Shown: positions 3,722 to 55,023 of the stretch, piece after piece
Layout: every line of letters begins with the position of its first letter
How positions within the stretch are numbered: position 1 is the first letter of the stretch
NCBI GenBank assembly: GCA_964551645.1
Contig: CAZKDV010000004.1
Span: forward strand, 1 to 55,221
Direction: 5' to 3'
Length of the DNA: 55,221 nucleotides
Source: an uncultured Bacteroidales bacterium
Lineage (GTDB): Bacteria; Bacteroidota; Bacteroidia; Bacteroidales; DTU049
The notes under the pieces: generated by a model
Seen by the model: only the letters and a program-made list of their open reading frames with translations
Database searches by the model: none
Told to the model about the DNA's origin: nothing
Made by a program: the position numbers and the translations under genes

Positions 3722-5041
3722 TTATTTTTGTTCTGTCCATTTCAGTCTGTCTTCTTTTGAATATTGCCATGGAGATCCATTATTTTCAATATTTGCAAAA
3801 ATTGTGTTTAGTTGATGTGGAGCATTTCCTTCTTCCATTACAAGATAACGCCTCAAATCAATAATAAAAGTAGTATGGTCAATATTCAAAGGACATTCTT
3901 TGGCGCAAGCATTGCATGTTACGCATGCCCAAATTTCTTCTTCAGTAACATAATCTCTAATTAAAGATTTGTTGTCATTATATGCTGTGCCTTCTTTTTT
4001 CAAACCTTTTGATTTTTCATTCATTCGCTTACGAATATCCATAAATAGCTTTCGTGGAGATAGTGCTTTGCCAGTAATATTGGCAGGACATACAGCAGTG
4101 CATCGTCCACATTGCGTACAGGCAAGCGAATCAATATAGTTTTTCCAAGTAATATTTTCGACATCTAAAATTCCAAATCTCTCAATTTTTTCAGTTTGAG
4201 AAATAGCGTCAATGTTTGTAAATAGTTCAGGATTTAGTATAATTTGTGCTTCTTTTGTGATTTGCTCCATAGTGTATAATTTACTCAAAGGAGATAATCT
4301 GCTTAAAAATACATTGGGCAATGAAAGAAAAATATGAAAATGTTTAGAATATGGTAAGATATTAGCAAAAATAAAAATCAAAAGTATATGTGTCCACCAA
4401 TTAAACTTGTACCAAAAAATGAGTTTTGGAGTAGATAAATTTGAAAATAAAGGAGCTATGTATTTGCTTATCGGATAGTTTACCACACAAGCATCAGTAT
4501 GCAGTGCCATAAAAAATGTATTTAAACCTGCAAGGCTAAGCATCAATAAAAAAATAAAAGTCAAAGCAAGATATGCGTCTTTGTGGTTTTTTTTGCTTAA
4601 TTCTTTTCCATGCAAACGAGCAATATTCAAATAATATCGCCTTATAATGAAAATAATTATACAAATTCCTATTATGTATGCAAACACATCACCAAAGCTC
4701 ATTAAAAAACAATAGGTATTTCCTAATATTGCGAAACTTTTTTCTAGTCCAAAAACTCCATCAACGACTATTTCTAAACTTCCGAAAAGAATTATGCAAA
4801 ATCCCCAAAATACAAGAGCGTGCATAATTCCAGCTATACGATTACGAAAAATTTTTTTTTGAAAAAATCCATTGACAAAGATTAGTTTGATGCGTTTGCC
4901 AATTCTTTTTATAGGATAAGCACTTCTGGTTAGCTTGAAGTTTTCAATAATTATACTAATGGAATATATAAAAACTCCAATTGTAATAATCAAAAGAGAT
5001 GTAAAAATTAATTTCTCCATTGTGATTGTTAGCTTGAACAC
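3722..5041 (-). CDS. integral-membrane protein with C-terminal 2x[4Fe-4S] ferredoxin domain (DsrM/HdrE-like anchor fused to a DsrK/HdrD-like N-terminal part)
   Basis: 439 aa with about six hydrophobic helices carrying conserved-looking His residues. Two motifs follow: CTQCGRCTAVCP and CVTCNACAKECP (CxxCxxCxxxCP). Confidence 0.75.
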   Translation of the reverse strand: MFKLTITMEKLIFTSLLIITIGVFIYSISIIIENFKLTRSAYPIKRIGKRIKLIFVNGFFQKKIFRNRIAGIMHALVFWGFCIILFGSLEIVVDGVFGLEKSFAILGNTYCFLMSFGDVFAYIIGICIIIFIIRRYYLNIARLHGKELSKKNHKDAYLALTFIFLLMLSLAGLNTFFMALHTDACVVNYPISKYIAPLFSNLSTPKLIFWYKFNWWTHILLIFIFANILPYSKHFHIFLSLPNVFLSRLSPLSKLYTMEQITKEAQIILNPELFTNIDAISQTEKIERFGILDVENITWKNYIDSLACTQCGRCTAVCPANITGKALSPRKLFMDIRKRMNEKSKGLKKEGTAYNDNKSLIRDYVTEEEIWACVTCNACAKECPLNIDHTTFIIDLRRYLVMEEGNAPHQLNTIFANIENNGSPWQYSKEDRLKWTEQK

Positions 5042-5170
5042 AAACTTGCTTGTAAAAGTATAAAAATTTTATATATGCAAAAAAATTATTTAGAGTAAAA
5101 TACTTTAAGGAATAAGATTATTATACAAGTAGATAAGAAAAAAATCGTAATTTTACGCAAAAATTTTTTC

Positions 5171-5632
5171 ATGGAACAGATTCTTCTATACATACTTATT
5201 TTTATTATAGCGATTGTAAGCTCTGTAAGAAAGAATAAAAAGAAAACTCAACAAGCCCAACAACAAGCAAAAAAAGTTGAAAAAACAGTAGTAGAACAAA
5301 AAAAATCAGAATTTCAAGGCTTTATACAACAATTAAAAGAGCAATTTGGAGAAGATATTCCAGAAGATAAAAAACTACAGCCAATTCAGACAGAACAACC
5401 CATTTCGTTCAATAAAAAGCGAAATTATACTGATAAAGAACGAAAATTAACAGATTCAAAAGTATATATAGAATCTAAGTTGCAAGGAAAAAATGTAAAA
5501 ACTCAAAAAAATCTTACTATTCTCGAAACAGAAGAAGAAGTTGCGGAAGATATTGATATTCAATTTGTTGAAATAGATGATGCAAGAAAGGCTTTTATAT
5601 TTTCAGAAATTTGGAACAGAAAATATGTGTAG
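5171..5632 (+). CDS. hypothetical membrane-anchored K/Q/E-rich protein
   Basis: 153 aa. N-terminal hydrophobic helix (ILLYILIFIIAIVSSV), then a highly charged low-complexity region, then C-terminus DDARKAFIFSEIWNRKYV. No family recognised. Confidence 0.5.
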   Translation: MEQILLYILIFIIAIVSSVRKNKKKTQQAQQQAKKVEKTVVEQKKSEFQGFIQQLKEQFGEDIPEDKKLQPIQTEQPISFNKKRNYTDKERKLTDSKVYIESKLQGKNVKTQKNLTILETEEEVAEDIDIQFVEIDDARKAFIFSEIWNRKYV

Positions 5633-5673
5633 AGTGAGAAATTTTGCTTTTTTTTGCATATTGGAAATTTATG

Positions 5674-5681
5674 TATTTTTG
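5674..5681 (+). promoter_or_regulatory. Bacteroidota-type -7 box TATTTTTG
   Basis: TAnnTTTG 39 nt upstream of the ATG at 5720. Confidence 0.5.
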
Positions 5682-5719
5682 CCAATTATTAAAATAGTAA
5701 AATAAAAATTATACAAACT

Positions 5720-8700
5720 ATGTTTAAAAAATTACTTAGCGGATTTAGCTTAATGTTGCTGATAACAGCCACTGTTCTTGCACAAAGCGGAACACTTATG
5801 GGTAAATTGAAAGATAAGGAAACTGGAGAACCAATTCCGTTTGCTAATATAGTTGCTGAAACAGCAGGGCGCCAAGTGGGAGGTTCTACAACAAACTTTG
5901 ACGGAGAATATACTATCAGACCAATTACTCCAGGTAGATATGATGTTAAAGCAACTTATGTCGGATACAAACCAATTATGATTCAAAATGTTATTATTTC
6001 TCCTGATAAAATAACATTTTTAGATGTTGAAATGGAATCAACTGCGGTTACTTTAACCACATTTGAAGTTGTTGATTATAAAGTCCCACTTATAGAAAAA
6101 GATGGTGGTGCTTCTGGCGGAACATTAACTAAAGAAGAAATTGAAAAAATGCCCGGCAGAAGTGCTACTTCTGTTGCAGTTACAGTTGGTGGTGTGTTTT
6201 CACAAGACGGTGAAGTTGGAAGCATCAGAGGACAAAGAAGCGAGGGTACAGTTATGTATATAGATGGTGTTCGTGTTAGAGGTTCCGGAGCTCTTCCAAA
6301 ATCTGCACTTGATCAAGTTCAAGTTATTACCGGAGGTTTGCCAGCACAATACGGAGATGCTACAGGTGGTATTATCCAAATTACTACCAGAGGAGCTTCA
6401 AGAGAGTTTGGTGGTGGCGTTGAGTTTCTTACATCTCAGTTTTTAGACCCTTATGGGTATAATTTGTTAGGATTTAGTGTTCAAGGACCACTTATTAAAG
6501 GCTCTGGAGAAAATAGTACATCTTTACTTGGATTTTTTCTTTCAGGAGAACTTAGCAGACAAGCTGACGGTAGACCATTTGCAACGCCAATAGGGGTATA
6601 TAAAGCTACAGATGAAGTTCTTGAATACTTAGAAGAAAATCCATTAAGACCTACAGGTTTAGGCTTCGGTGCTTTCCAAAACGGATCTTATATCAGAATG
6701 TCTGATTTAGAAAAAATGAAGTCAAAAATAAATAATACATCTTACGGTGTTAATTTGGCTGGAAGATTAGATGTTAGAACAAACCCAAACTCAAACTTAG
6801 CATTCGGAGGTTCTTTGAATTATAATACTGGAATTGCCTATGTTCATAGCTATAGCTTGTTCAATCATAAAAGCTTTCCTGTTTCAACAGATAATACTTG
6901 GCGTGTTTACGGAAGATATATGCAAAGATTTCCTACCGATTCTGCAAGCAGATCTCCAATTCAAAATGTTAACTATACAATCCAAGCAGACTATTCAAAA
7001 TATACAAGTATAGCACAAGATGCTAATCATAGAGATAATTTATTTGACTATGGATATATTGGTAAGTTTACGACTCATAAAGTTAAATCTTATGAATTAG
7101 GTGATTTGCCAAACAAAGGATTATATGATGTGTATATACACAATGGGTTTAGAGATACATTATACGATTTTGAACCTATGGATGTAAACCCAATTTTGGC
7201 AACATATACAGGAAGATATTATGACTTATATCCATTATATTCAGGAATGTACTCTAATAGTGTTTTAGTTCAAAATGGTGGAGGATTATTGAATGGAGAA
7301 ATGCCACCTTCAATTTATGGATTATGGACAAGTCCGGGAACAGTATATAATAGTTACGGATATTCTGACGCTAGTTCAGTAGGTATCACAGCTCAAGCTT
7401 CTGCCGATGTTGGAAGGCATGCAATTCAATTCGGATTTCAATATGAACAAAGATCAGACAGTTATTACGGTTCTGCTCCAGCTGGATTATGGTACAGAAT
7501 GAGGCAACTTACAAATAAACATATCGAACAAATTGATACAGCTAACCCTATTCTTGTGTTTGATGCAATGGGTATATTTCAAGATACTGTTTGGTATAAT
7601 AGATTATATGATGGTGCATCTCAATCATTTTTTGACTATAATTTGAGACAACACTTGAATTTGCCTGTTGATGGCTTAGATTGGTTAGATATTGACAGTT
7701 ACGACCCAAGTACATTTGATATTTCATGGTTTAGTGCTGACGAATTATTAAATGAAGGAACAAGTCCTTATGTTGCATACTATGGATACGACCACACAGG
7801 TAAAAAATTGAAACATAAGCCAAGTTTTGATGATTTCTTCACTAAACAGGATAAATACGGAAATTATACTCGCGAAATCCCTGCATTTGAACCTATTTAT
7901 ATGGCAGGTTATATTCAAGATAAATTTGCATTTAGAGATTTGATTTTCAATATCGGAATTCGTGTTGACAGATTTGATGCAAACCAAAAAGTATTAAAAG
8001 ATCCATACTTATTATATGAGGCAAAAACAGTAGGAGATATTGGAGATGAGTTTGGAGAAATTCCTTCAAATATGGGAGATGATTTTGTTATCTACATGAA
8101 TGATACAAGATTTCCGAATGCAATTTTAGGCTATCGTGATGGCGATGTATGGTACAATGCTCAGGGGCTTGAAATTACTGACCCAACTTTAATTTCTTCT
8201 CCAGGAGGTATTGCTCCTTATTTAGTAAATCCGGAATTAACCAAACCAACATCAGATGCCTTTAAAGATTACGAACCTCAGATTAGCGTTATGCCTCGTT
8301 TGTCTTTCTCTTTCCCAATTTCTGACGAAGCTCTTTTCTTTGCTCACTACGATGTTGTTACACAACGCCCAACAACTGGATTAAGATTAGACCCAACAGA
8401 CTATTACTTTATTCAAGCGAAAGGACAAAGCGTTTTGAACAACCCAAATTTAAAACCTCAAATGACCGTTGATTATGAACTTGGTTTTCAACAAATGCTG
8501 AATATTCGTTCATCAATTAAATTTTCAGCTTACTATAAAGAAATGCGTAACCAAATTCAAGTTTATCGCTTTACAGGAGCTCACCCCATGTCGTATATTT
8601 CATATAATAATATTGACTTTGGTACAGTTAAAGGTATGACTATTTCTTATGACCTAAGAAGAAATGTAAATATTTGGATAAAAGCTAATTATACATTACA

Positions 8701-9367
8701 ATTTGCTGATGGAACAGGTTCTTCAGCTACTTCTGGTATCAACTTAGTTAGAACAGGACAGCCAAATCTTAGAATCATTAATCCTCTTGATTATGACAGA
8801 AGACATAACTTTTCATTAGTTGTTGACTATAGATATGGTAAAGGAAAAAACTATAACGGTCCAGTTATAACAAGAAAAGTAGCTGGCTCTGACAAGCTAA
8901 AAACTTATCCTATTTTACAAAATACTGGTGTTAACTTTACATTTATTGGTGGTTCTGGAGTTCCTTATAGCCGTTCGAGTACTGTTGTTCCAACACAAAT
9001 AGGAGGTGGTACTTATGTTCTACAAGGATCAATGAACGGTTCAAGATTACCTTGGCAGTTTACAATAAATGCTAGGTTGGATAAAGAGATTTCTATTGCT
9101 CACGGAGCAGATAAGAAAAAAACAACTGACTTTAATGTTTATCTTGAAGTCATGAATGTATTGAATGCTCAAAATATTCTTGGTGTATATCGTGCAACTG
9201 GTAATCCTGATGATGATGGTTATCTTGCAGCTGCTGAGTATCAAGCAGGTATTCAAGCACAATTAGACCCAGAATCATTCCGCCAACAATATGCTCTTGC
9301 CGTAAATAGTCCATATAACTATAGTTTACCAAGAAGAATTAGATTAGGAATAGTTTATAATTTTTAA
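5720..9367 (+). CDS. TonB-dependent-type outer-membrane receptor with N-terminal CarboxypepD_reg-like domain (1215 aa)
   Basis: Signal peptide, then GTLMGKLKDKETGEPIPFANI...FDGEYTIRPITPGRYDVKATYVGY (carboxypeptidase-regulatory fold). Plug region has IRGQRSEGTVMYIDGVRV...VITGGLPAQYGDATGGIIQITTRG. A very long beta-barrel region ends in RIRLGIVYNF. Confidence 0.85.
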   Translation: MFKKLLSGFSLMLLITATVLAQSGTLMGKLKDKETGEPIPFANIVAETAGRQVGGSTTNFDGEYTIRPITPGRYDVKATYVGYKPIMIQNVIISPDKITFLDVEMESTAVTLTTFEVVDYKVPLIEKDGGASGGTLTKEEIEKMPGRSATSVAVTVGGVFSQDGEVGSIRGQRSEGTVMYIDGVRVRGSGALPKSALDQVQVITGGLPAQYGDATGGIIQITTRGASREFGGGVEFLTSQFLDPYGYNLLGFSVQGPLIKGSGENSTSLLGFFLSGELSRQADGRPFATPIGVYKATDEVLEYLEENPLRPTGLGFGAFQNGSYIRMSDLEKMKSKINNTSYGVNLAGRLDVRTNPNSNLAFGGSLNYNTGIAYVHSYSLFNHKSFPVSTDNTWRVYGRYMQRFPTDSASRSPIQNVNYTIQADYSKYTSIAQDANHRDNLFDYGYIGKFTTHKVKSYELGDLPNKGLYDVYIHNGFRDTLYDFEPMDVNPILATYTGRYYDLYPLYSGMYSNSVLVQNGGGLLNGEMPPSIYGLWTSPGTVYNSYGYSDASSVGITAQASADVGRHAIQFGFQYEQRSDSYYGSAPAGLWYRMRQLTNKHIEQIDTANPILVFDAMGIFQDTVWYNRLYDGASQSFFDYNLRQHLNLPVDGLDWLDIDSYDPSTFDISWFSADELLNEGTSPYVAYYGYDHTGKKLKHKPSFDDFFTKQDKYGNYTREIPAFEPIYMAGYIQDKFAFRDLIFNIGIRVDRFDANQKVLKDPYLLYEAKTVGDIGDEFGEIPSNMGDDFVIYMNDTRFPNAILGYRDGDVWYNAQGLEITDPTLISSPGGIAPYLVNPELTKPTSDAFKDYEPQISVMPRLSFSFPISDEALFFAHYDVVTQRPTTGLRLDPTDYYFIQAKGQSVLNNPNLKPQMTVDYELGFQQMLNIRSSIKFSAYYKEMRNQIQVYRFTGAHPMSYISYNNIDFGTVKGMTISYDLRRNVNIWIKANYTLQFADGTGSSATSGINLVRTGQPNLRIINPLDYDRRHNFSLVVDYRYGKGKNYNGPVITRKVAGSDKLKTYPILQNTGVNFTFIGGSGVPYSRSSTVVPTQIGGGTYVLQGSMNGSRLPWQFTINARLDKEISIAHGADKKKTTDFNVYLEVMNVLNAQNILGVYRATGNPDDDGYLAAAEYQAGIQAQLDPESFRQQYALAVNSPYNYSLPRRIRLGIVYNF

Positions 9368-9403
9368 CAATTTAAAAAATAAGAAATATTAAGATTAAAT
9401 AAT

Positions 9404-12400
9404 ATGAAAAAGTTAATAATAAACATCTTCGCTTTAATTGTAATAACGGCAACGGTTTATGCAGATAAGAATCCGGACGATAAGCTAGCTATGGTTGCTA
9501 AATCTACTGCTGCTGGTTGTTTGCCTGCATCTGCTCATATTGAATTAAAGATAAATAATGTTCGTGCAAGAATAAATACAGGTGGTGATATGTGGTGGGA
9601 CTTAGCCGGTTCAGCTTTGTATGAAATCCCTAAGGGTTCACAAAAACACTCAATGTTTTCTGCTTCTCTTTGGATTGGAGGCGTTGATGTTAACGGACAG
9701 TTGAAACTTGCTGCTTTAAGATACAGACAAGTAGGAAATGATTATTGGCCTGGTCCACTTTCTGTTGATGGAACGGCATCAATTGACCCAGAAACTTGTA
9801 TTAAATATGATAGACACTATGTAATATACAAACAAGAAGTAGAAGATTTTTTAGGCTGGAGAACAATGCCTGAATTATATCCTGATTATCAAGTGCCTCG
9901 TTCAATTATGGATTATCCTGCACACGGAGACCCAACAAGGAATGAAGCAAAATATTTAGCACCTTTCTTTGATGCAGATAATGACGGAGAGTATAATTGG
10001 GAAGCAGGAGATTATCCTTATTATGATTTGGATAATAGTCTTTGTCCATTATATCTTCAACATGGAGCAACCAGACAACCAACTATGGGTTCGGATCCGG
10101 AATACGGCACTCCGACAGAAAAAGGCGGTTTATTGACTGACCAAGTATTAAAAGGAGATCAAACGGTTTGGTGGGTATTTAACGATAAAGGAAATGTTCA
10201 CACAGAAACAGGCGGAGCTCCTATAGGTTTAGAAATTAGAGCGCAAGCATTTGCTTTTACAACTAATGATGAAATCAACAATATGACTTTTTATAGTTAT
10301 GAAATTATCAATCGTTCAACATATAGATTAACAGAAACATACTTTTCACAATGGGTTGATTCAGATATTGGATATGCTTTTGATGACTATATTGGTTGTG
10401 ATGTACAAAGAGGCTTGGGTTATAGCTATAATGGTAAGGCAATTGATGGTTCCGGAAAATTTGACCACTACGGAGAGCAACCACCTGCAATTGGAGTTGA
10501 CTTTTTTCAAGGTCCTTATATGGATTCTGACGGAATAGATAATCCAAAATATTCTCATGTAGTAAATCCTGAAACTGGAGATACTACTTTTGTTCAGCTT
10601 TGTGATGAAAGTATCAATGGTGTAAACTTCGGAAATGGTATTGTTGATGACGAACGCTTTGGTATGAGAAAATTTGTTTATCATAATAATACAGGTGGTT
10701 ATTGGGCTATGACTGACCCAAGTATTGCACCTGAATATTATAATATATTAAGAGGTATTTGGAAAGATGGAACAAGAATGTTATACGGAGGTAATGCACA
10801 CTTAAATTCAGGTGCTTACGGTCCAGAATGTGATTTTATGTTCCCCGGCGATACTGACCCATGCGATTGGGGTATTGGAGGAATTCCACCTAATGGACCA
10901 AGATATTGGACAGAAGAAGTTGCTGGAAACGAGCCTTACGACAGACGATTTATGCAATCAGCAGGACCATTTACACTTGAACCAGGAGCCGTAAATTATA
11001 TTACTGTTGGTATTCCTTGGGCTCGTGCTATAACTGGCGGTCCATGGGCTTCAGTTGAATTATTAAGATTAGTGGACGACAAATGCCAAAGACTATTTGA
11101 TAACTGCTTTAGAGTTGTTGACGGACCTGATGCTCCAGACTTAGTTATTCGCGAACTTGATAAAGAAATTATTATATATTTGACTAACAAACCAAATAGT
11201 AATAATTATAATGAAAAATATGAAGAATTTGACCCTTCAATTGTTTCTCCTGATTCATTAGTTGGAGAAGAAAGATATGATTCTATTTATAGATTTGAAG
11301 GATACCAAATTTTCCAATTAAAAGATCCTACAGTTTCAGCTGTTGATGTACACAATCCAGACTTAGTAAGATTAGTTGCTCAGTGCGATGTTAAAAATGG
11401 AGTTTCACGATTAATTAATTTTTATTATTCCGAAGATTTAGCTGCTGTTATACCTATTGAAGAGGTTGATGGTGCAGATGCCGGAATTGTTAAATCATTC
11501 AGAGTTCTTGAAGATAAATTTGCAACTGGTGATAAACGCTTAGTAAACAACAAAAAATATTATTTCATGGCTTTAGCTTATGGTTATAATGAATATGAAA
11601 GATATTCGCAAGACCCAGCGTATCAAGTTGCCGGAGAAGCAAGTTTGTTTGGGCAACAAAGACCATATCTAGCTGGTAGAAAGAATATTGATGTTTATAC
11701 TGCAATTCCTCATAAAACTGAACCATTATCAGGAGGAACGGTTATTAATGCTAACTATGGAGCAGGACCACAAATCACAAGAATTGAAGGAAATGGAAAC
11801 GGAAATTTAGTTCTTGAGCTAACAAAAGAATCTATAGATGAAATTGTTAAAAATGGTATGGCAGAAAGAGTAACTTATAAAAACAATAGAGGTCCATTAA
11901 ACATTCAGGTTATTGATCCATTGAAAGTTAAACCTGCTAAATATATAGTGAAATTTAATGTTGATGGAGATATTAATGATGCTACTTGGACAATGCACGA
12001 GCTTGATGCAAGTGATAATATTGTAGCATCATATCATTCTGATAAATCTATAAGTGTAGGAAGTGAACAATTATTCTTAGATCTTGGAATATCTTTATCA
12101 ATACAGCAAAGTTCAAAACCCGGAGATCTTGAGCATGAAACAAATGGATTGTTGGAATCATCAATAGTATATGCTGATAGCTCTAAGAGATGGTTGTCAG
12201 GTCTTCCGAATATTGATGGACCAGGCCCGTTTAACTGGATACGCTCCGGAACAACTTATGATAGAGATGATCCAAACAATAATGATTACGAATTTAACGA
12301 AACTACACTATCGTGGTTAGACCCTGATCAACATTATGAAAAAATATTGGGAGGTACTTGGGCTCCTTATCGTATGGCATCAAGATTTGAGCATGGACCT

Positions 12401-13459
12401 GCAAGAGGATTATTGCATAGCTTAAGCCGTCTTGACGATGTTCATAGCATAGATGTTGTATTTACGCCCGATAAGTCTAAATGGACTAGATGCCCGGTAA
12501 TTGAAACAGGTGAAGATAGATTGCTATCAGAAGGTGGAGCGGCAAAATTTGAGTTGAGAAAACATGCTTCAATTGATAAAGATGGCAAAACAGGAACCGC
12601 AGAAGCTAATTATGACAACAGAACAGTAGGTATGGGTTGGTTCCCTGGGTATGCAATCAATATTGAAACTGGCGAAAGAATGAATATGATGTATGGAGAA
12701 GATAGTTGGTTAGCCGGAGAAAACGGAAATGACATGATGTTTAACCCAACTTCAAGATATACAGGTTTAAATACTTATTTCTTTGGTGGAAAACATTTCT
12801 TGTACATTTTTGGAAACTTTAAAACTGCTAATTTAGACTTGTCACCAGCTTATGACGAAGGTGCATGGACACATGATAAATTAACTTCAGGTGGAACTGT
12901 GGAAATGAGAAATCTATATCGCTCTATTATGTGGGTAAGTGTTCCTATGGCATTGTCAGATGAAGAATGGTTATCTAATGAAGCAAGAGTACGCATCAGG
13001 GTTTCTCGCCCATATTCAAGATATTATTCTTCCTCTCCTTTGGTTAGTACTAAGAATCCACAAAATAATAATTGGCCAATGTATGAGTTTAATACTTTTG
13101 ATTTAGCAACAACTACAAGCGACTTGCCAACAGCTAAAACTGCTCTTGATTTAATTAATGTAGTGCCAAATCCATACTACTCATATAGTGATTATGAAAT
13201 GACTCAGTTGGACAACTTGGTTAAAATAACTAATTTGCCTCCTAAGTGTACTGTGTCAATTTTTACTGTTAGCGGTACTATGATTAGACAATTTACTAAG
13301 GACGACCCAACAACAATTATTGAGTGGGATTTGAAAAATTATGCAGGAATACCAATTTCAGGAGGAATGTATTTGATACATATTGATGTTCCAGGCGTTG
13401 GAGAAAAAACTGTGAAATGGTTCGGTTCATTACGACCACTTGATTTAAATGCATTTTAA
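9404..13459 (+). CDS. secreted 1351-aa protein of unknown function with T9SS type-A-like C-terminal sorting domain
   Basis: Signal peptide MKKLIINIFALIVITATVYA. C-terminal about 80 aa (LINVVPNPYYSYSD...VKITNLPPKCTVSIFTVSGTMIRQF...GGMYLIHIDVPGVGEKTVKWF) has the Por secretion-tail pattern. It starts 36 nt after the receptor gene. Confidence 0.8.
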   Translation: MKKLIINIFALIVITATVYADKNPDDKLAMVAKSTAAGCLPASAHIELKINNVRARINTGGDMWWDLAGSALYEIPKGSQKHSMFSASLWIGGVDVNGQLKLAALRYRQVGNDYWPGPLSVDGTASIDPETCIKYDRHYVIYKQEVEDFLGWRTMPELYPDYQVPRSIMDYPAHGDPTRNEAKYLAPFFDADNDGEYNWEAGDYPYYDLDNSLCPLYLQHGATRQPTMGSDPEYGTPTEKGGLLTDQVLKGDQTVWWVFNDKGNVHTETGGAPIGLEIRAQAFAFTTNDEINNMTFYSYEIINRSTYRLTETYFSQWVDSDIGYAFDDYIGCDVQRGLGYSYNGKAIDGSGKFDHYGEQPPAIGVDFFQGPYMDSDGIDNPKYSHVVNPETGDTTFVQLCDESINGVNFGNGIVDDERFGMRKFVYHNNTGGYWAMTDPSIAPEYYNILRGIWKDGTRMLYGGNAHLNSGAYGPECDFMFPGDTDPCDWGIGGIPPNGPRYWTEEVAGNEPYDRRFMQSAGPFTLEPGAVNYITVGIPWARAITGGPWASVELLRLVDDKCQRLFDNCFRVVDGPDAPDLVIRELDKEIIIYLTNKPNSNNYNEKYEEFDPSIVSPDSLVGEERYDSIYRFEGYQIFQLKDPTVSAVDVHNPDLVRLVAQCDVKNGVSRLINFYYSEDLAAVIPIEEVDGADAGIVKSFRVLEDKFATGDKRLVNNKKYYFMALAYGYNEYERYSQDPAYQVAGEASLFGQQRPYLAGRKNIDVYTAIPHKTEPLSGGTVINANYGAGPQITRIEGNGNGNLVLELTKESIDEIVKNGMAERVTYKNNRGPLNIQVIDPLKVKPAKYIVKFNVDGDINDATWTMHELDASDNIVASYHSDKSISVGSEQLFLDLGISLSIQQSSKPGDLEHETNGLLESSIVYADSSKRWLSGLPNIDGPGPFNWIRSGTTYDRDDPNNNDYEFNETTLSWLDPDQHYEKILGGTWAPYRMASRFEHGPARGLLHSLSRLDDVHSIDVVFTPDKSKWTRCPVIETGEDRLLSEGGAAKFELRKHASIDKDGKTGTAEANYDNRTVGMGWFPGYAINIETGERMNMMYGEDSWLAGENGNDMMFNPTSRYTGLNTYFFGGKHFLYIFGNFKTANLDLSPAYDEGAWTHDKLTSGGTVEMRNLYRSIMWVSVPMALSDEEWLSNEARVRIRVSRPYSRYYSSSPLVSTKNPQNNNWPMYEFNTFDLATTTSDLPTAKTALDLINVVPNPYYSYSDYEMTQLDNLVKITNLPPKCTVSIFTVSGTMIRQFTKDDPTTIIEWDLKNYAGIPISGGMYLIHIDVPGVGEKTVKWFGSLRPLDLNAF

Positions 13460-13481
13460 TAAAATTAAAAATAATAATTCT

Positions 13482-14537
13482 ATGAAAAAAAGTATAAGTA
13501 TCATAATAGCAAGTATCTTTCTGCTAATGTCATTCTCGACCTTTGCAGGTAATAAGGACAGAGCAGGGCAGGGAGGTAGCTCAGAGTTATTAATTATGCC
13601 CTATGCAAGAAGTAGTGGTTGGGCAAGTTCTAATACATCTAATATCAGAGGCTTAGAAGCAATGTACTTAAATGTTGCCGGAACTGCTTTTACTCAAAAA
13701 ACTGAAGTAATATTTGCACACACCGACTGGCTAAAAGGTTCAGGTGTATCAATAAATTCATTTGGACTAACTCAAAGAGTTGGCGAAACAGGAGTGATTG
13801 GTATAGGAGTGATGAGTATGACATTCGGAGAAATTGATATTACAACAGTTAATCAACCCGAAGGAGGAATAGGTAAATTTCGTCCAAGTTTGATGAATAT
13901 CGGACTTTCTTATGCAAAAGCTTTCTCAAATAGTATATACGGAGGTATGGTTTTGAGAATCATAAATGAGTCAATAGCCGATAACTCAGCTCAAGGAATT
14001 GCGATAGATGCAGGTATTCAGTATGTTACTGGCGATAATGACCAAATAAAATTTGGAATCGCTTTACGGAATGTTGGACCTTCAATGAGGTTTAACGGAG
14101 ACGGATTGTCTTTTAGAGGAAATGTTATAGGCTCCGGTAATCAATTAACCGTAGAGCATAGATCGGCAAAGTTTGAACTACCATCTTTGTTGAATATTGG
14201 AGCTTCTTATGACTTCTTTTTAACAGAAAATCAAGAGCATATACTTACTGCATCTGGTACTTTTACCTCAAATTCATTCGAAAAAGATAATTTTAGCATA
14301 GGAGTTGAATATGATTTCAAAAAAATATTCTACTTAAGAGCTGGCTATCACTATGAAGACGGTATTTTTGAGGCAATGCCAAAAAGAACAACTGCATATA
14401 TAGGACCTACAGCAGGTTTTTCATTGCAAATACCTACTAATAAAGAAAATGGTTCTTTTATTTCTTTAGATTATTCTTATCGTGCAACTAATCCTTATCA
14501 AGGAATTCATACCATAGGTGCAAGAATTAGTATGTAA
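13482..14537 (+). CDS. PorV/PorQ-family outer-membrane beta-barrel protein (paralogue-like)
   Basis: I prefer ATG 13482 (MKKSISIIIASIFLLMSFSTFA signal peptide) over the track start 13449, which overlaps the upstream stop. N-terminus GQGGSSELLIMPYARSSGWASSNTSNIRGLEAMYLNVAG plus alternating beta-strand pattern and aromatic-rich C-terminus resemble the PorV/PorQ family. Confidence 0.7.
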   Translation: MKKSISIIIASIFLLMSFSTFAGNKDRAGQGGSSELLIMPYARSSGWASSNTSNIRGLEAMYLNVAGTAFTQKTEVIFAHTDWLKGSGVSINSFGLTQRVGETGVIGIGVMSMTFGEIDITTVNQPEGGIGKFRPSLMNIGLSYAKAFSNSIYGGMVLRIINESIADNSAQGIAIDAGIQYVTGDNDQIKFGIALRNVGPSMRFNGDGLSFRGNVIGSGNQLTVEHRSAKFELPSLLNIGASYDFFLTENQEHILTASGTFTSNSFEKDNFSIGVEYDFKKIFYLRAGYHYEDGIFEAMPKRTTAYIGPTAGFSLQIPTNKENGSFISLDYSYRATNPYQGIHTIGARISM

Positions 14538-14563
14538 AACACTTTTACGACTACATAGATTAG

Positions 14564-14594
14564 AGGTTCTTCATTAATGAAGAACCTTTTTTTT
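14564..14594 (+). terminator. rho-independent terminator of the 5720-14537 operon
   Basis: AGGTTCTTCA-TTAA-TGAAGAACCT perfect 10-bp stem followed by T8. Confidence 0.8.
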
Positions 14595-14800
14595 ATATAA
14601 ATGTTTTAATAGTTTATGAAATGTTTTATTTTTAACTAGGATAAATTGCCTAATCATCGCTTATCTAAGCTTTAAATCCTTCATTTAGTAATTTTGTTCA
14701 ATTGAGGAAAAATGTGCGTTATTTGGCGTTTAAAACAACTTTTTTGTTAAATGTATGTCGTTTGATGATATTTTGCGAATATTGCAACGGGAAATTTTGT

Positions 14801-14842
14801 TATAAAAAACATTACCCCGGATTTTTATCCGAGATAATGTTT
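14801..14842 (-). terminator. rho-independent terminator of the minus-strand lipoprotein gene
   Basis: On the minus strand: AAACATTATCTCGG-ATAAAAAT-CCGGGGTAATGTTT (14-bp stem with two G-U pairs) running into a T-tract, 31 nt past the stop at 14873. Confidence 0.65.
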
Positions 14843-14872
14843 AATAAAATTGTCAAACGAAAAATATGCAGA

Positions 14873-15724
14873 TTATTGAGGGATAGTTACAACATAGCTT
14901 AAACCCTTATAGCTTACAATAAATTTATTGTCGCATGTGCCGTCTCCGTAATCAATAAATATTTCTTCTTTCTTTGATGTAATTGTTTGTTTGCCGGCAA
15001 CTATACGCCATTCGCAACTCATGTCGATATGGATTGCTTCGGTAATTTCGATGCTGTATTCTTCGTCTGCTGCCGTAATGCCGTTTTGTGTTCCCGTAAT
15101 TTTATACTCATCATCAGAAGCAGTAATGGTTTCTTCGCCTTTTATCCACTCAATTGTGCGATTGCTCGACCATTGCGTTACGCTGTTGTTTTCGGGATTT
15201 GTGATTTTTCCGTTTTTAACCTGAAAATTGTATGATAAAAAATTGTCGCTGTTTAGTCCGTTGTTGGTTATGGTGTTTGTTCCTTCAACTCCAAAGTCGC
15301 TAACCGAATAATTTTCCAATCCGACTGTGATAATACTGCCCGTTTCTTTAAACCAATTTGTTGCATTAATCATAATTTTGCCTTTTCTTAGTTTTCCGTC
15401 ATTTCCTAAGCAGCCTTCGCCAAAATCGACAGTAATATCTTTTGGAAATGTTGTTAAGTCAAAAGGTTCGATTGTAATTAAAGCACAAAAATTATTTGAT
15501 GAAGCAAGATTTTTGCCTCCTTCCACTGAATCCTTGGCAGATAAAGTAGCACTTTGGGCTTGGTCGAAAACATCGCTGAAAAATGCTTCGGCAGTAGAAT
15601 TGCTTAAAGCTATATTTTTGGCAGTTTCGGGAGAAATAATTGTAGGCTTCTCAGTATCACACGATTGCAATACGAAGAAAGTTAAAGCAATGCTTGTTAA
15701 AAATAATAATCTCATTGTTTTCAT
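14873..15724 (-). CDS. hypothetical lipoprotein
   Basis: 283 aa with lipobox-type signal peptide MKTMRLLFLTSIALTFFVLQSC. No family recognised. Confidence 0.7.
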   Translation of the reverse strand: MKTMRLLFLTSIALTFFVLQSCDTEKPTIISPETAKNIALSNSTAEAFFSDVFDQAQSATLSAKDSVEGGKNLASSNNFCALITIEPFDLTTFPKDITVDFGEGCLGNDGKLRKGKIMINATNWFKETGSIITVGLENYSVSDFGVEGTNTITNNGLNSDNFLSYNFQVKNGKITNPENNSVTQWSSNRTIEWIKGEETITASDDEYKITGTQNGITAADEEYSIEITEAIHIDMSCEWRIVAGKQTITSKKEEIFIDYGDGTCDNKFIVSYKGLSYVVTIPQ

Positions 15725-15774
15725 GTTATTGGATTTTATGATTTATGTTATGCAAAATTAAAGAAAGTTTTTAC

Positions 15775-16800
15775 TCAAAACAAATCTCCTATTATATTAT
15801 TTTGTGTTTTCCCCAAGTGTTTATATGCCAATGGTGTTGTTAGTCTTCCTCTTGGCGTTCTTGTCAAAAATCCTTGTTGTATCAAAAAAGGCTCATACAC
15901 TTCTTCTATTGTGCCTGCGTCTTCGCCCACGGCTGTTGATATAGTGTTTAGCCCTACGGGTCCTCCGTTAAATTTTTCTATTATTGTCAATAATATTTTA
16001 TTGTCCATTTCGTCCAATCCGTACACATCTACATTTAGTGAGCTTAAAGATTTTTGTGTTATTTCTATATTTATTTTTCCGTCTCCGTCTATTTGTGCAA
16101 AATCTCTAATTCTTCTTAATAATAGGTTTGCAATTCTTGGTGTTCCGCGGCTTCTTTTCGCAATTTCTGTTGCTGCTTCTTCTGATATTGGTATTTGCAA
16201 TATTTTTGCTGATCGTTTAATAATTCCTTTCAGCACATCGGCAGTATAATATGCAAGTCGCGAATTAATTCCGAATCGAGACCTCAGAGGGGCTGTAAGC
16301 AATCCGCTACGGGTTGTTGCCCCAATCAGCGTAAAAGGGTTAATTTTTATTTGTATGCTTTTGGCACTTGGTCCTGTGTCTATCATAATGTCGATGCGAT
16401 AATCTTCCATTGCCGAATACAGATATTCTTCCACCACAGAACTTAGTCGGTGAATTTCGTCAATAAACAGCACATCGTTGGCTTGCAGATTTGACAGTAG
16501 TCCTGCAAGGTCACCCGGCTTGTCAATTACCGGTCCCGAAGTGATTTTAATTCCTACATTTAATTCATTTGCAATAATGTGCGATAGCGTTGTTTTTCCA
16601 AGTCCGGGAGGTCCGTGCAACAAAACATGGTCGAGGGCTTCGCCTCTCATTACTGCTGCTTTCACAAAAACTTTAAGATTTTCGATAATATTTGCTTGCC
16701 CTTGAAAGTCGTCAAACCTGAGCGGTCGCAGTGCTTTTTCATATTCTTTTTCAGCTTGCGACAGATTATTTTGCTCCGGATTTAGTAGGTCGTTTGTCAT
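15775..16800 (-). CDS. ruvB: Holliday junction branch-migration DNA helicase RuvB
   Basis: [12 protein letters not shown]...[22 protein letters not shown]...LFIDEIHRL...[18 protein letters not shown] are canonical RuvB motifs. Confidence 0.97.
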
Positions 16801-22499: not shown

Positions 22500-25400
22500 A
22501 TGAAAACAATAGGCAAATTGTTTGGTTTTATGCAATTTTTAATAATTGCTATGCTCTTTAGCGGAGTTTTTTCTTTTGCGTATGGGCAATATTCAGGTAT
22601 TGGAACATTTAACAAAATAACTTCTCTTACTGATTTAACAGATGGTTATTATGTAATTGTTAATAGTGGAGATGCTTCTTTTGCAATGAATAATACCCAT
22701 AATGGAACATTTTTAGCCAACACATCTGTAACACCATCAAGTGGCAAAATAACAAATCCATCACCTTCAATCGTTTGGAAAATTGAAACAAATGGGAGTG
22801 GGCGTACAATTTATAATGAAACAACTAAAAAGTATGTATCATACACTGGCTCAAGCAATAATGTGCAAGTGGTTGATGCTGTTTCTACTGATAATCAAAG
22901 ATGGACTATTACTTATGGCTCTAATGTGTTTACATTTAAAAATGTTGCTATTAACACTAGAATGTTACAATACAATACTAGTTCACCTAGATTTGTTTGT
23001 TATCAAGCTTCTTCTAACCAGCAAAATCTATTATTATACAAAATGGTTGCTGCTACTCCAACAATAAATCTTTCATCTCCTTCGCAAACGGCTGCTGCGG
23101 ATATTACACAAAGCTCAAACAATAATATTATATCTCACTTTCAGGCTGCTATTACTACTACTGACGCAACATTAAATTCATTACAATTTACTACAACTGG
23201 TACCTATCAAGCAAGTGATATAAATGGCAATTTCAAACTTTATTATAGCACATCATCTACATTTGGCAGTGCCACTCAATTAGCCACAGTTGCTTCGGGA
23301 GTTGCTGGCGCATTTACATTTACTGGTCTTTCTAAAGCCATAGTTAGCGGAACTACTGGATATTTTTGGATTTTACTTGATGCCTCAGCAACATCAGGTG
23401 GAAACAGAACTCTGACAGTTTCGGCTAATCCAACGCTTACATTTGCAAGCGGAACACCAACAGGAACAATTACAGCAGGCGGACAAAAGACATTTAAAAC
23501 TCCAACAACACCAACAATTACAGTTGGAAGTATTGCTGCATTTGGAAATATTTGTATTAACACAACATCAGATAAATCATATGCAGTTTCAGGAATTAAT
23601 CTTGTTGAAAACATCATCATAACTTCTCCATCAGGGTATCAAATTAAAACAGGTGCTGGTTCTTGGGGAACAAGTTTAACGCTTGTTCAATCAGGAGGTA
23701 CCATTAATAGTACAACTATTGATGTGCGTTTTGCTCCAACATCTGTTCAGTCATATAGCGGAAATATTACACACACAAGTAGTGGAGCAACTCAAAGCAA
23801 TGTTGCAGTTAGTGGTGCTGGGGTTAATACCCCTCCTTCTGTTACAACTGTTACAGCTACAAGCATAACATCAGAAAGTGCTAAATCAGGAGGTAGTAAT
23901 ATTGATGCAGGTTGTGGTACTATTTCAGTTAAGGGTGTAGTTTGGGGAACTTCAGCAAATCCGACTGTAATTTCAAACATTGGAAAAACTGAAGATGGAA
24001 ATACAACAGCTAACTACACTAGCTCTATAACTGGACTTAATGCAAATACTTTGTATCACTATCGTGCGTATGCTACTAATAACGATGGAACGACAAGCTA
24101 TGGAACAGACTTAACATTTACCACTTTAAAAAATGTCCCAACAACACAGGCTTCAAACATCACATTTTCATCAGTTGATGTTTCGTCTATGAACATTAAT
24201 TGGACATCAGGAAATGGCGATAAGAGAATAGTTGTTATCAATACGACAAATTCGTTCACTAATCCGACTGACGAAACTGACCCAATTGCAAATGCTACAT
24301 ATTCGGGCTCGGGACAGCAAGTGGTGTACAATGGCAACGGTAACATTGTTACCGTAACAGGCTTGTCGCAAAAAACAACCTATTGGTTTAGAGTGTATGA
24401 ATATAACAACACAGGAACTAACACCAAATATTTAATTTCAACAGCAATAAACAATCCCAATAGCGAGCAAACAATTGATGGACCATGTGCAACTGAAAAT
24501 TTTGACAATTTGCCAACAACCAATGGAAGCACATATACATATCGTTCATGGACAGGCACAGACGGTGTAACATGGACAGCTGAAGGAGCACGAACAGATG
24601 AAAAGATTGATGGTAGCATGGCAATTTGCTTTGGAGGATCAGGAACCAAAAAGCTTAATTCTCCCACATACACAGGTGGAATGGGTAAACTGACCTTTAA
24701 ATATGTTAGAGCTTTTACAGGAACAGGAACAAGAGCGTTAGAAGTGTGGGTTAATAGCAATAAAATAGATGATATTACAGTTAATGCATCTTCAGATGTA
24801 GTTGTACTTTATTCTAAAGATATTAACATTGGAGGCAATGTTGAACTTGAAATTAAGAGCACAGGAGCTCAAGTAAAAATTGATGATATTAGCTGGGCTT
24901 GCTACGAAGATACACCAATATCAGAAATGGTGGTAAAAGGCAATTCAACAATTATTGCAAATGGCGACAACACTCCATCATTAACAGATCATACTAATTT
25001 TGGCAATATTGAGGCTGCTTTGGGTACAATAGTTAGAACATTTACAATAGACAATATCGGAACAGGAGCTCTTAATTTAACCGGAACAAGTCCTTATGTT
25101 AGTATAAGTGGTGCACATGCAGGCGATTTTACTGTTTCACAAGCTCCGAGCACTCCAATTGCTGCAAGCAGTAGCACAACATTCAAAATTACATTTGACC
25201 CAAGTATTGTGGGAGTAAGAACGGCTGTTGTTAGCATAGCAAATAATGATTCAAATAAAAATCCTTATACATTTACTATTCAAGGAACAGGCACCAATAG
25301 CAGCTTGTCTGATATTATTGAAGATAATACTATATATACTTCAAATATTGACTATACTTTATATCAAGCCGAAACAATCACCAATACTTCTCACAGTGTA

Positions 25401-28400
25401 AGTGTAATGCGATTTACAATCAGAGATGGAGGTGAAGGTAGTGATAGCGATAATTTAGGTACAGAATTAAATGGAATTACTTTTTCTGTTACAAATATAG
25501 ATAATATTCGTAGTGCTGCTTTGTTTGATGTAAACACTATGCTTGCAAATAATCCTACAATTAATTATTCTGCTGGAACTATTACATTTAGTGGCTTGAG
25601 CGGAGCAAACTTTACAGCTCCCGATAATGGAAGTAAGTCTTTAATGTTTAGAGTTAGTTTTGACAATACAGTAACTGATAAATCGCAAATGCAATTTACT
25701 ATATCAGAAGCAAATGCAAATGTTTCCGGATCAAGTTTTGCAAGCCCAAATGCCGGTGGTGCAACTTCAAGCATAGTCGGGGATAGAAATAGAATTGAAG
25801 TAGTTGCAGATAGATTAAATTTTACACAACAACCAAGCAACACAACTGTTTTTGCAAATATGTCTCCTATTATTGTTGCAGCAGTAGATGCGAATAATAA
25901 CAGAGATATTGATTTTTCATCTAGTATTTCAATCACATCAACAGGAACTTTATCAGGAAGCCCGGTATCAAGCAATGCAGTTGGTGGATATGCAACTTTT
26001 AACGAATTAATTCATACCGTTTCTGCTACAGCTTTAAAGCTAACGGCACAAACTACTGGTTTATCTTATAGCAATTCAGTTGTTTCAAATACATTTGATG
26101 TTATTGAATTTGCTTATGTAAATGGTGATTATCGTCCATTATATGCTAATGTTGATTTATCGCATAATGGTTCATGGGAATATTTTAATGGAACAACATG
26201 GGGTGCAACACCTGGAAATTTGGCTCCTCAAAATGCAGCTACAAAGCCAAGCAGAGTAATTATTGATAAAAGCGGAATTACTGGAGGTGGTAATTCTTCC
26301 AATTCATATAATGACATTATCATAATAAATGGAGGAGAATTAATATTAGACAATAATGCTAATCCAAGTGCTGATTTTATAAGTGTAGGAAAAAAACTTG
26401 AAATTCAGGACGGTGGTGCTTTGATAGTAAACGGACAGATACGCTTCAATTCGACAGCAAATTTTATTATCAGAACAGGTGGCACACTAACACTTAACAG
26501 TAGTTCAATTGGTAACAGTCATGGATTTTGGTCTGGTATTGAAAACTTTGAAATAGGTTCAAATTTTATTGTTCTCAATCATAGAAATGATGGAGGAGGA
26601 ACATCAAGTTTAATAAACACATCATACGGTGCTATTTCAAACAATTCGGCAGGTGCTAAATTTGGAAATTTGATAATAAATTTTGCTCCGTCTCAAACTT
26701 GGGTTATTATGGGAGGTGGTGAAAATATAACTCTATGTGATAATTTGACTATTACTAATGCGGGTATAAGTCCGATAGCGATGTTTTCAAATACAAATGG
26801 ACCAGTAGTTACAATTTTAGGAGATTTTACCCATAATTTAGGTATATTAGGTCTGACTAATACATTTTCAGGCACATCAACTTCACAAACACTTCATATA
26901 AATGGCAATCTTACTTCAAATGCAGGCACACTCAAGTTATTCCATTCAGCTGGAGGCAATGCAGGCGGTATTAATGTGAATCTCAAAGGAGATCTTTCAA
27001 TTGCTTCAGGTGTAACTGTTTCTAATGATGGAATACCTGCAAATTGTAGTTTTAATTTGAACGGTACAGAATTGCAAACGCTTAATATTGCACCTAATAT
27101 TACGGGTTGGAGATTTTTTGTAAAAGAAAATGCCAGCGTTCAATTAGCAGGTAATGATATGAAATTAAACGGAAATAGTACAATAACTGTTGAAACTGGA
27201 GCAACATTTGATTTTGGATTTAATGGCACAACTGCATTAAAAGTGAATCAAGTTGGCGGAACGGGAAACAGTTTTACAACACAACAAGCTAGTACATTAA
27301 TTATTACATCTCCAAATGGAATTTCAGGAGTTACAGGAGGATTAGGCAATGTTGAAGGTATTCCTACCGCAAATAGGATATTTAATCAACTTGCAACATT
27401 CCACTATAAAGGAAAAGAAAATCAAATTACTGGAAATGGCTTGACAAACGCTTCAAACGGAAAAATATTGATAGTTGAGCTATATAATAACGATATTTCG
27501 TTAACATTAACCAACGGAACAGGAATAACAAACAATACTACACTTAGTCCTGATGGAGGACGACTTGAAATTAAAAAAGGTATTCTTGTATCTGATGCTA
27601 CAGCTCCTATTTCAAGTACGGGCAAATTAATTATGTCTGATGGTACATATAAAATTGCTGAATTAACAACAGTTCCGCAATTAACAGGTACTTATGATAT
27701 TAGCGGAGGGACGATTGAACTTAATGGAGGAGAAGGCACTCAAACACTTAGAGCTGGAAAAGACTATTATAGCTTAACATTTAGCGGTGGCGGAACGAAA
27801 CTTACAAGTAGTGCAATAACAAATATTGGAGATAATAATAATGTAAATCAAGGTCTTGTTACAATTAAAGATGACAGCACTATACTCGATGTAGGAAGCT
27901 CAACATTTAGCGGTAATGCCGGACTAAATATGACTGATAATTCAAGATTTAGGATGAAAACTTTAAATCAAACATTACCTCAATTATTAGGCGATTACGA
28001 GTTAGTAGGTGGTACAATTGAATTGTATGGAACAAGTTCTTCTCAAACACATTCAATCAAAGGCGGTGTTACATATTACAATGTTGATATTAATGCTGAA
28101 GAAGCTAATATTAATGCAACTTATGCAAATGTTGTTGCAAGTTCAAGTTTTGCAGTTAATGGGACTATGTCTGTTAATAATCCTGCTTGTTTTAGAATAA
28201 GTGCAAATTATAATATTAGCGGTTTAGGTTCATTTATTGTGCAAGATGGTGCAACTTTCAAATATGCTCATGTTGATGGTATTTCATATATTGAAAATGT
28301 AGGAAATATTAGAACGGCAAATAAACAATTCTCATCTGAAGCAAGTTATGGATTTAGCGGATCGGTAAGTCAATATGCAGGAGATGGATTACCTACTCAG

Positions 28401-32169: not shown

Positions 32170-32186
32170 GGGTTTAGGTTTAATTT

Positions 32187-54865: not shown

Positions 54866-55023
54866 TTTAAAAAATACTTTTAAATAAATAACTATTTGCA
54901 ATATTAGAAAAAAAAAGTGAAATTGTACATAAGTTTTTCTTTAAAGCTATTAAAAATCTAAATTACACATCTATTTAATAATAAACATTATACGATACAA
55001 AAATACTTTTGATATAATCTTCG

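Follow-up and report, generated by a model that had tools for sequence, protein, structure and literature searches.

The window analysed here is the entire contig CAZKDV010000004.1 (55,221 nt, GC 33%) of an uncultured Bacteroidales bacterium (assembly GCA_964551645.1), and this study concerns three neighbouring genes on its + strand. Gene 1 (5720-9367, 1215 aa) encodes a TonB-dependent transporter (TBDT). Gene 2 (9404-13459, 1351 aa) encodes a beta-rich surface protein of an uncharacterised family, which ends in a putative C-terminal domain (CTD) of the T9SS (type IX secretion system), and gene 3 (13482-14537, 351 aa) encodes a FadL-like barrel assigned to the PorV/PorQ family. Sequence comparisons provide strong support for the view that this trio forms one self-contained outer-membrane module, which is inherited as a unit across Bacteroidia. 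We also propose, with slightly less than even confidence, that gene 3 permanently docks gene 2 via the CTD, as PorQ does with PorZ, and thereby would hold it beside the transporter as a capture subunit.

The conservation of the trio was studied in the 80 best gene-2 loci, which were taken from one genome per species and compared by tblastn and clustering of open reading frames (ORFs). The order gene 1, gene 2, gene 3 on the same strand is found in 77 of the 78 testable loci from different species, and is therefore conserved far beyond close relatives, a point on which the original prediction had made its proposal depend. When the window locus is included the clustering gives 78 loci each for gene 1 and gene 3. 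Exceptions to the trio among the 80 loci are L034, which has no upstream flank, L056, an orphan gene-2 paralogue from a metagenome-assembled genome (MAG) in which the complete trio is found at L041, and L075, where gene 2 stands alone. The median gaps in the related loci are 43 nt between genes 1 and 2 and 42 nt between genes 2 and 3. Across the linked loci the identities amount to 37-57% for gene 1, 43-58% for gene 2 and 39-62% for gene 3, and the flanking genes vary. More than 7000 relatives of gene 2 were matched in a database clustered at 90%, the best 120 of which are 55-72% identical over the full length. Clustered at 50% identity, the family falls into 7537 clusters if E<=1e-3 is required and into 2292 if E<=1e-30 is required. 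In a scan of one genome per species, a relative was present in at least 594 genomes.

The trio is carried by Bacteroidales, Lentimicrobiaceae, Marinilabiliales-type genomes and a few Flavobacteriales MAGs. One further locus, L083 (GCA_042576465.1), is labelled candidate division KSB1 and has a context of the Bacteroidales type, consisting of a sensor gene, a LytTR gene, the small gene g0 described below, the trio, greA and a HIT-family gene. The KSB1 label may be doubtful or wrong, or the block may have been transferred. An occurrence of the trio outside Bacteroidota was rejected, because this sole 'KSB1' locus shows the Bacteroidales-type context.

In 66-68 of the 80 related loci, greA and a HIT-family gene follow the trio (e.g. 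18913-19800 in L081 and 13319-14204 in L083). About 25 loci contain upstream of the trio a sensor kinase of ~1050 aa (Reg_prop propeller, Y_Y_Y, LytS-type) together with a LytTR regulator; examples of this region are 1475-5461 in L003, 5434-9474 in L081 and 1-3550 in L083. The two proteins may regulate the trio where they are present. The sensor and regulator do not occur in the window, where the trio has no greA/HIT neighbours either and sits between an Fe-S oxidoreductase pair and ruvB. The trio is therefore a mobile and conserved unit, the genes of which moved together in this lineage.

Some of the loci contain a second gene-2 copy. It is located directly after gene 3 in L058 (15387-19412), L060 and L061 (15379-19416), and the extra copies in L058 and L061 are devoid of the C-terminal tail that is typical for the family and end with …KWFGALSE. 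In L009, L014 and L064 the second copy is found after greA-HIT and keeps the tail. Compared to the first copy it is 90% identical in the CTD and 74-80% in the body in L009 and L064, and 74% and 72%, respectively, in L014.

The genes of the window trio are separated by spacers of 36 nt (gene 1/2) and 22 nt (gene 2/3), and according to the ORF list an earlier ATG at 13449 is also possible for gene 3. An intrinsic terminator with a 12-bp stem, a 4-nt loop and T8 (14562-14594, hairpin 14562-14589, + strand) follows gene 3. Its RNA fold reaches -18.5 kcal/mol (z = -6.27), and 0 of 200 shuffles of the sequence were equally stable. The remaining terminator-like matches on the + strand within 4500-16000 have 5-bp stems, which leaves this one as the sole strong terminator. 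The co-directional arrangement with its spacers and the single strong hairpin after gene 3, as described in the original prediction, was thus confirmed in coordinates and fold. The TAnnTTTG box reported upstream of gene 1 is also present. This box, TATTTTTG (5674-5681, + strand), was read from the sequence as a Bacteroidota-type -7 promoter box and lies 46 nt 5' of the gene-1 ATG, with a TTTG at 5653-5656, 17 nt further upstream. Its role as a promoter is only plausible, since TAnnTTTG is common in the AT-rich window (69 copies on the + strand, 9 of them within the operon). In 24 of 59 related loci the motif occurs within 150 nt upstream of gene 1, where it clusters 53-74 nt before the ATG. 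A promoter in the spacer upstream of gene 1 is plausible, although the motif alone is weak evidence and does not prove it.

Gene 3 has a signal peptide of the signal peptidase I type (SPI; TFA-GN). The assignment as PorV/PorQ-like, which had been suggested earlier, is supported by the NCBIfam model NF033709 (PorV_fam), which matches residues 36-349 with 144.6 bits at a cutoff of 90. The protein fails the three equivalog models, with 63.4 of 250 bits for PorV (NF033710), 63.3 of 220 bits for PorQ (NF033711) and 40.6 of 325 bits for PorV2 (NF052325). A profile of the gene-3 family matches PorV from F. johnsoniae (6h3i_F) with E 1.9e-15 and TodX weakly, and weak similarity to FadL and Phenol_MetA_deg was seen, too. 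Gene 3 is a barrel of the PorV family that is not a canonical PorV, PorQ or PorV2. A scan that covered the window and the flanking regions of the 80 loci, but no further part of the genome, gave no second PorV-like ORF.

The CTD of gene 2 spans positions 13121-13456 (+ strand, residues ~1240-1351). If the isolated CTD is compared with NCBIfam, the C-terminus of PorZ scores best with 29.3 bits, followed by TIGR04183 with 21.2 bits and the C-terminus of PorU with 17.8 bits. The full-length protein reaches 16.9 bits for TIGR04183, and both values are under the cutoff of 23. The orthologues score between 14 and 35 bits, and some of them pass the cutoff at 31-35 bits. Neither PF18962 nor the type B model TIGR04131 matches gene 2. 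The type-A-like sorting domain of the original prediction is probably correct as to its class, and the window copy itself remains below the cutoff of the type A model. Gene 2 matches the PorZ model NF052228 only at model positions 661-740 (23-29 bits, cutoff 260), and of the 1095 positions of the PorU model NF033707 only the last ~85 are matched (12-18 bits, cutoff 420). On the CTD a family-specific C-terminal tail, RPLDLNAF (RPxDLNxF), is found, and the C-terminal peptide of gene 2 ends with KWFGSLRPLDLNAF. This weak similarity places the CTD in the type-A class, nearest to the CTDs of PorZ and PorU, which are retained. Gene 2 as PorZ was rejected, since the match is confined to the CTD and is below the cutoff of 260. 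A PorU-like sortase was rejected as well, because here too only the CTD is matched, no C25 peptidase match exists and the structural model is nearly all-beta.

Gene 2 has a molecular mass of ~150 kDa, an SPI signal peptide (VYA-DK, by eye) and DxDxDG loops that resemble Ca-binding loops. We infer that it crosses the inner membrane by Sec and then the outer membrane via the T9SS through its CTD; it would reach the surface by this route because it carries an SPI signal and a CTD and is not a lipoprotein.

The relation between the CTD and gene 3 was analysed by a mirror-tree comparison of pairwise distance matrices from 70 loci, and from 57 loci with GreA+HIT as a control. The distances of the CTD correlate with those of gene 3 at r 0.77-0.80 and with those of the gene-2 body at 0.61-0.64 (0.77 versus 0.64 in the 70 loci). 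If the body and gene 1 are taken into account, the partial correlation between CTD and gene 3 is 0.46, a value reached by 0 of 300 permutations; the corresponding value for CTD and gene 1, given body and gene 3, is 0.15. With GreA+HIT as an additional covariate these partial correlations are 0.55 for gene 3 and 0.17 for gene 1 (57 loci). The control itself correlates with the CTD at a partial r of 0.11, given body, gene 1 and gene 3. Gene 1, the gene-2 body and gene 3 show pairwise partial r values of 0.35-0.44, versus 0.11-0.25 for the control (57 loci). The mean distances within gene 2 are 0.52 for the N-terminal domain, 0.61 for the CTD and 0.69 for the body, so that, of the segments measured, the N-terminal domain alone changes more slowly than the CTD. 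A pattern of this kind is expected of a lasting interface between CTD and gene 3 rather than of a disposable signal, although a mirror tree is not proof of it. A private relationship between gene 2 and gene 3 is supported, because the CTD tracks gene 3 more closely than its own body and resembles the CTDs of PorZ and PorU.

The CarboxypepD_reg-like domain and the plug that had been read in gene 1 could be verified by Pfam. The protein contains a signal peptide (1-21), a CarboxypepD_reg domain (25-105, 57 bits), a plug domain PF07715 (135-218, 31.8 bits at a cutoff of 23.9) and a C-terminal F. Between the N-terminal domain and the plug a conserved TonB-box-like motif, TFEVVDYKVPLI, is located at residues 114-125. 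This motif was recognised by sequence only, and we take it to resemble the EVVV-type TonB boxes of Bacteroidota TBDTs. PF00593 does not match gene 1 of the window, yet it is present in many homologues. In the sequence profile search against the PDB, the matches were restricted to the N-terminal domain and reached no solved transporter beyond it.

The AlphaFold2 (AF2) model of gene 1 (mean predicted local distance difference test score, pLDDT, 83.4; predicted template modelling score, pTM, 0.78) shows a barrel of ~22 strands that encloses the plug and bears long extracellular loops. Foldseek found 188 PDB matches at E<=1e-3, with PirA, PfeA, Cir, FhuA and BtuB at the top (E 1e-26 to 1e-21, template modelling score (TM) normalised to the target 0.6-0.77), and the model also matches XusA (9gbc, E 1.5e-21). 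The structural matches are ordinary TBDTs of 600-800 aa, and on the basis of this model gene 1 is regarded as a genuine TonB-dependent transporter. Long strand pairs on turns of 2-5 residues alternate with loops of 30-140 residues, hence the barrel is normal-sized and the extra length sits in the extracellular loops. The idea of an oversized barrel, which had been raised earlier, was rejected on these grounds, as AF2 and Foldseek place the added length in the loops. The loops are about as conserved as the strands (0.59-0.79 versus 0.76). No SusC/RagA family was found among the NCBIfam matches of gene 1 at E<=0.1. No SusD-like gene is located beside gene 1 or nearby, in line with what had been noticed before. 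Gene 1 is thus not a member of the SusC/RagA subfamily that works with a SusD partner.

For gene 2 no Pfam, NCBIfam or PDB sequence match was obtained outside the CTD, for the PDB neither with the single sequence nor with a profile. The AF2 model of residues 21-1215 (pLDDT 74.7) is almost entirely beta, and Foldseek returned only weak matches of beta-sandwiches (E 2.5e-4, TM 0.11-0.23) to N-terminal domains of GH15-like, GH116 and GH94 proteins, without the catalytic (alpha/alpha)6 barrel of these enzymes. In six long homologues a Pfam scan recognised only inserted BNR or Ig-like domains. The possibility that gene 2 is a characterised enzyme, which would have spoken against the original prediction, was considered and rejected, since Pfam, NCBIfam, the PDB and Foldseek give at most this weak beta-sandwich similarity and no known family is found outside the CTD. 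The 665-aa protein encoded at 14046-16040 in locus L075 carries a canonical type A CTD (PF18962, 48 bits) and is weakly similar to residues ~116-542 of gene 2. This protein suggests that the N-terminal region of gene 2 forms an autonomous module, which shorter cargo can contain as well.

How the three proteins might work together can be outlined as follows. Gene 3 would receive gene 2 at the translocon and would hold its uncleaved CTD permanently, like PorQ with PorZ and PorV with PorU. Gene 2 would then remain at the surface of the cell, next to or above the long and conserved loops of gene 1, and might capture or process a substrate for the transporter, a role that is played by SusD, BtuG or XusB elsewhere. 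Weak hints to the substrate, namely the GH-type beta-sandwich matches and the propeller sensor kinase in about a third of the loci, point toward glycan. The trio might represent a new class of three-component TonB uptake machine, present in at least several hundred Bacteroidota species, in which a T9SS cargo serves as a non-lipoprotein capture protein or lid and is docked permanently, via the uncleaved CTD, in a PorV-like barrel of its own; we offer this wider picture tentatively and consider it rather less than probable. The original prediction had envisaged that a T9SS-delivered surface protein might be passed by its own PorV paralogue to a TonB-dependent transporter or be assembled on it. 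The pairing of gene 2 and gene 3 in this proposal gains support from the co-variation and the likeness of the CTDs, whereas the role as a shuttle or an anchor and the contact with the transporter continue to be inferred. The link that had been drawn to PorF is supported by no result of this study.

Several known systems invite comparison. PorV is the barrel to which type A CTDs bind at the translocon, PorU (on PorV) and PorZ (on PorQ) keep their CTDs as membrane anchors, and cognate PorV-like barrels have been proposed to shield CTDs from cleavage (PMC10202324). As in these pairs, a PorV/PorQ-family barrel is combined in the trio with a large surface protein that is presumably exported by the T9SS. 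In contrast to them, the body of gene 2 matches neither PorZ nor PorU (24-50 bits at a cutoff of 260 and 12-23 bits at a cutoff of 420, respectively), gene 3 stays below the cutoffs of the PorQ and PorV equivalog models, and the pair is encoded in an operon with a TBDT, where nothing suggests a role in cargo attachment. SprF-SprB is an example of a cargo-specific outer-membrane barrel that is encoded beside its cargo: in PMC9143113 and PMC10202324, barrels of the PorP/SprF family are described as dedicated to neighbouring type B cargo and its surface anchorage. Gene 3 differs from SprF in belonging to the PorV/PorQ family and not to PorP/SprF, and the CTD of gene 2 is of the type-A class and not of type B.

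A precedent for a FadL-like barrel that docks a surface protein is BamG, which stably binds the surface protein BamH by its extracellular loops, against a larger barrel (PMC12578637). Unlike in the trio, BamH is a lipoprotein, the large barrel BamA is not a TBDT and there is no T9SS signal. On the side of the transporters, SusC/SusD, BtuB-BtuG and XusA-XusB share with the trio a TBDT with a CarboxypepD_reg-like N-terminus and long loops, encoded beside the gene of a surface protein. The putative partner in the trio is however no lipoprotein but a protein of 1351 aa that carries both an SPI signal and a CTD, gene 1 has no SusC/RagA match, and a PorV-like barrel is present as a third component. 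In P. gingivalis the TonB-dependent receptor IhtA acts with the surface haem-binding partner IhtB, which is called a lipoprotein (PMC12094164). As in the trio, a TBDT is encoded here with a surface-exposed outer-membrane partner. IhtB has been listed among the CTD-family proteins. Unlike the trio, IhtA-IhtB has no dedicated PorV-like barrel, IhtB is small and chelatase-like, and the substrate is known to be haem/iron. No description of the trio was found in the full-text literature, in a search whose coverage is without most subscription journals. Each part is of a known kind, and it is the combination of a TBDT, a putative T9SS cargo as its presumed surface partner and a presumably private PorV-family barrel, kept as one operon by hundreds of species, that appears to be new.

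Some observations weigh against a permanent docking of gene 2 next to the transporter. Paralogues of gene 2 that have no gene 1 or gene 3 nearby (L056, L075, L082) carry the same kind of CTD and the same tail, and in L082 (3668-12137) distant paralogues are arranged in tandem without a transporter or PorV-like gene. Because these orphans share both features, the type of the CTD is a trait of the family and not a mark of the operon, and the use of the tail RPxDLNxF or of the CTD score as a marker of operon copies was rejected. The retention of the CTD is deduced from the weak similarity to the PorZ model alone (24-50 bits, C-terminal part), and the fold of gene 2 gives no confident functional match. 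Outer-membrane proteins may furthermore share effects of rate or composition, and these can produce mirror-tree correlations as well.

The same data can be read in other ways. Gene 3 could be a transient private shuttle, which ferries gene 2 from the SprA translocon until PorU cleaves the CTD and gene 2 is attached to anionic lipopolysaccharide (A-LPS) or released, still serving the transporter. PorV is known as a shuttle for type A cargo, as stated in PMC12578637 and PMC10994853. The type-A class of the CTD, with some orthologues passing TIGR04183, fits this explanation, and the co-variation of CTD and gene 3 agrees with any specific contact between a CTD and a barrel. We nevertheless consider it unlikely and prefer to see in gene 3 a permanent anchor similar to PorQ for PorZ. 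The general PorV serves many CTDs, which leaves a shuttle for a single cargo without an obvious rationale; PorZ and PorU, the best matches of the CTD, keep their CTDs; and the slow evolution of the CTD, exceeded only by that of the N-terminal domain among the segments measured, is easier to reconcile with a permanent interface than with a disposable signal. The trio could also consist of co-regulated but independent parts, with gene 2 as a secreted or surface enzyme or binder, gene 1 as an importer and gene 3 as a FadL-type channel or helper that does not dock the CTD. Membership in an operon shows co-expression only, the paralogues of gene 2 also stand alone, and gene 3 is weakly similar to TodX, FadL and Phenol_MetA_deg. 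Its FadL-family matches are, however, far weaker than those to NF033709 and PorV, the CTD co-varies specifically with gene 3, and gene 2 contains no recognisable catalytic family, so that this explanation, too, has in our opinion a low probability.

A housekeeping envelope module, be it structural, for outer-membrane biogenesis or for a surface coat, in which the TBDT-like barrel is a platform, is suggested by the unusual conservation of the surface proteins (for both gene 1 and gene 2, the 120 nearest homologues show 55-79% identity) and by the position beside greA and HIT that is fixed in 66-68 loci. A riboswitch was not found either, and no substrate-linked enzyme genes occur among the recurrent flanking genes that were characterised. 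On the other hand gene 1 keeps a plug and the TonB-box-like motif, which point to energised transport, the upstream two-component sensor in ~25 loci suggests a regulated and not a constitutive use, and the window copy is found at a different chromosomal place; such a module is in our view quite improbable. Least credible of all is that genes 2 and 3 are the PorU-PorV of this lineage and gene 1 a mere neighbour. The genes porU and porV are adjacent in P. gingivalis and F. johnsoniae, and the arrangement in the window resembles this adjacency; the CTD of gene 2 matches the C-terminus of PorU weakly, and no other PorV is visible in the window. Gene 2 matches the PorU model however only at the last ~85 positions with 12-18 of the 420 bits and has no C25 peptidase, gene 3 reaches 63 of the 250 bits for PorV, and gene 1 is linked in 78 loci, all of which makes this explanation very improbable.

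Directly upstream of the trio the gene g0 (5171-5632, + strand) encodes a 153-aa small membrane protein that begins with an N-terminal transmembrane helix, is rich in K/Q over one stretch and carries the conserved motif ARKAFIFSEIWNRKYV at its C-terminus; no Pfam or NCBIfam match was found for it. In 37 of 69 testable loci, gene 1 is preceded at a distance of ~100-130 nt by the end of an ORF of the g0 type, which has [RK]KAVIYSEILNRPY as its C-terminal motif. The protein, which was missing from the gene list of the original prediction, thus often seems to be an accessory of the trio. No riboswitch was detected in the window, and the regions upstream of g0 and of gene 1 contained neither a riboswitch nor another Rfam element. 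The trio is flanked in the window by housekeeping genes for 2-oxoacid:ferredoxin oxidoreductase subunits, the Fe-S/CCG pair and RuvB. The other housekeeping genes in the flanks encode an acid phosphatase of the HAD superfamily (IIIB) and a Der/EngA-like GTPase, which combines two MMR_HSR1 domains with a KH domain of the EngA type. Downstream of the terminator, in the stretch 14598-15724, an AT-rich spacer of 278 nt is followed by a 283-aa ORF on the - strand (14873-15724) without a Pfam or NCBIfam match.

Other T9SS cargo is also encoded by the contig. The ORF at 22500-30788 (+ strand, 2762 aa) contains a choice-of-anchor D domain together with a strong type A CTD (TIGR04183, 34.5 bits) and represents another large cargo protein. 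The 898-aa ORF at 52205-54901 (- strand) has a type B CTD (TIGR04131, 39.6 bits), and the organism therefore uses both CTD classes. At 30871-33554 (- strand) a 432-aa ORF without an NCBIfam match adjoins one for a 455-aa protein, in which a ClpP/SppA-like serine protease domain is recognised; this pair is uncharacterised.

The surface partners of Bacteroidota TBDTs, such as SusD, BtuG and XusB, have so far been understood as lipoproteins, and PorV-family barrels as components of the machinery for secretion and attachment. If the proposed docking is true, the T9SS would be an assembly route for nutrient transporters, and PorV-like barrels could be permanent docking sockets for functions other than secretion. 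A conserved operon would then join the systems of TBDT surface partners and of PorV barrels. The trio would further provide a tractable pair for studying what decides between cleavage and retention of a CTD, and it would give a first functional handle on an unannotated family of ~1350-aa proteins with more than 7500 clusters at 50% identity.

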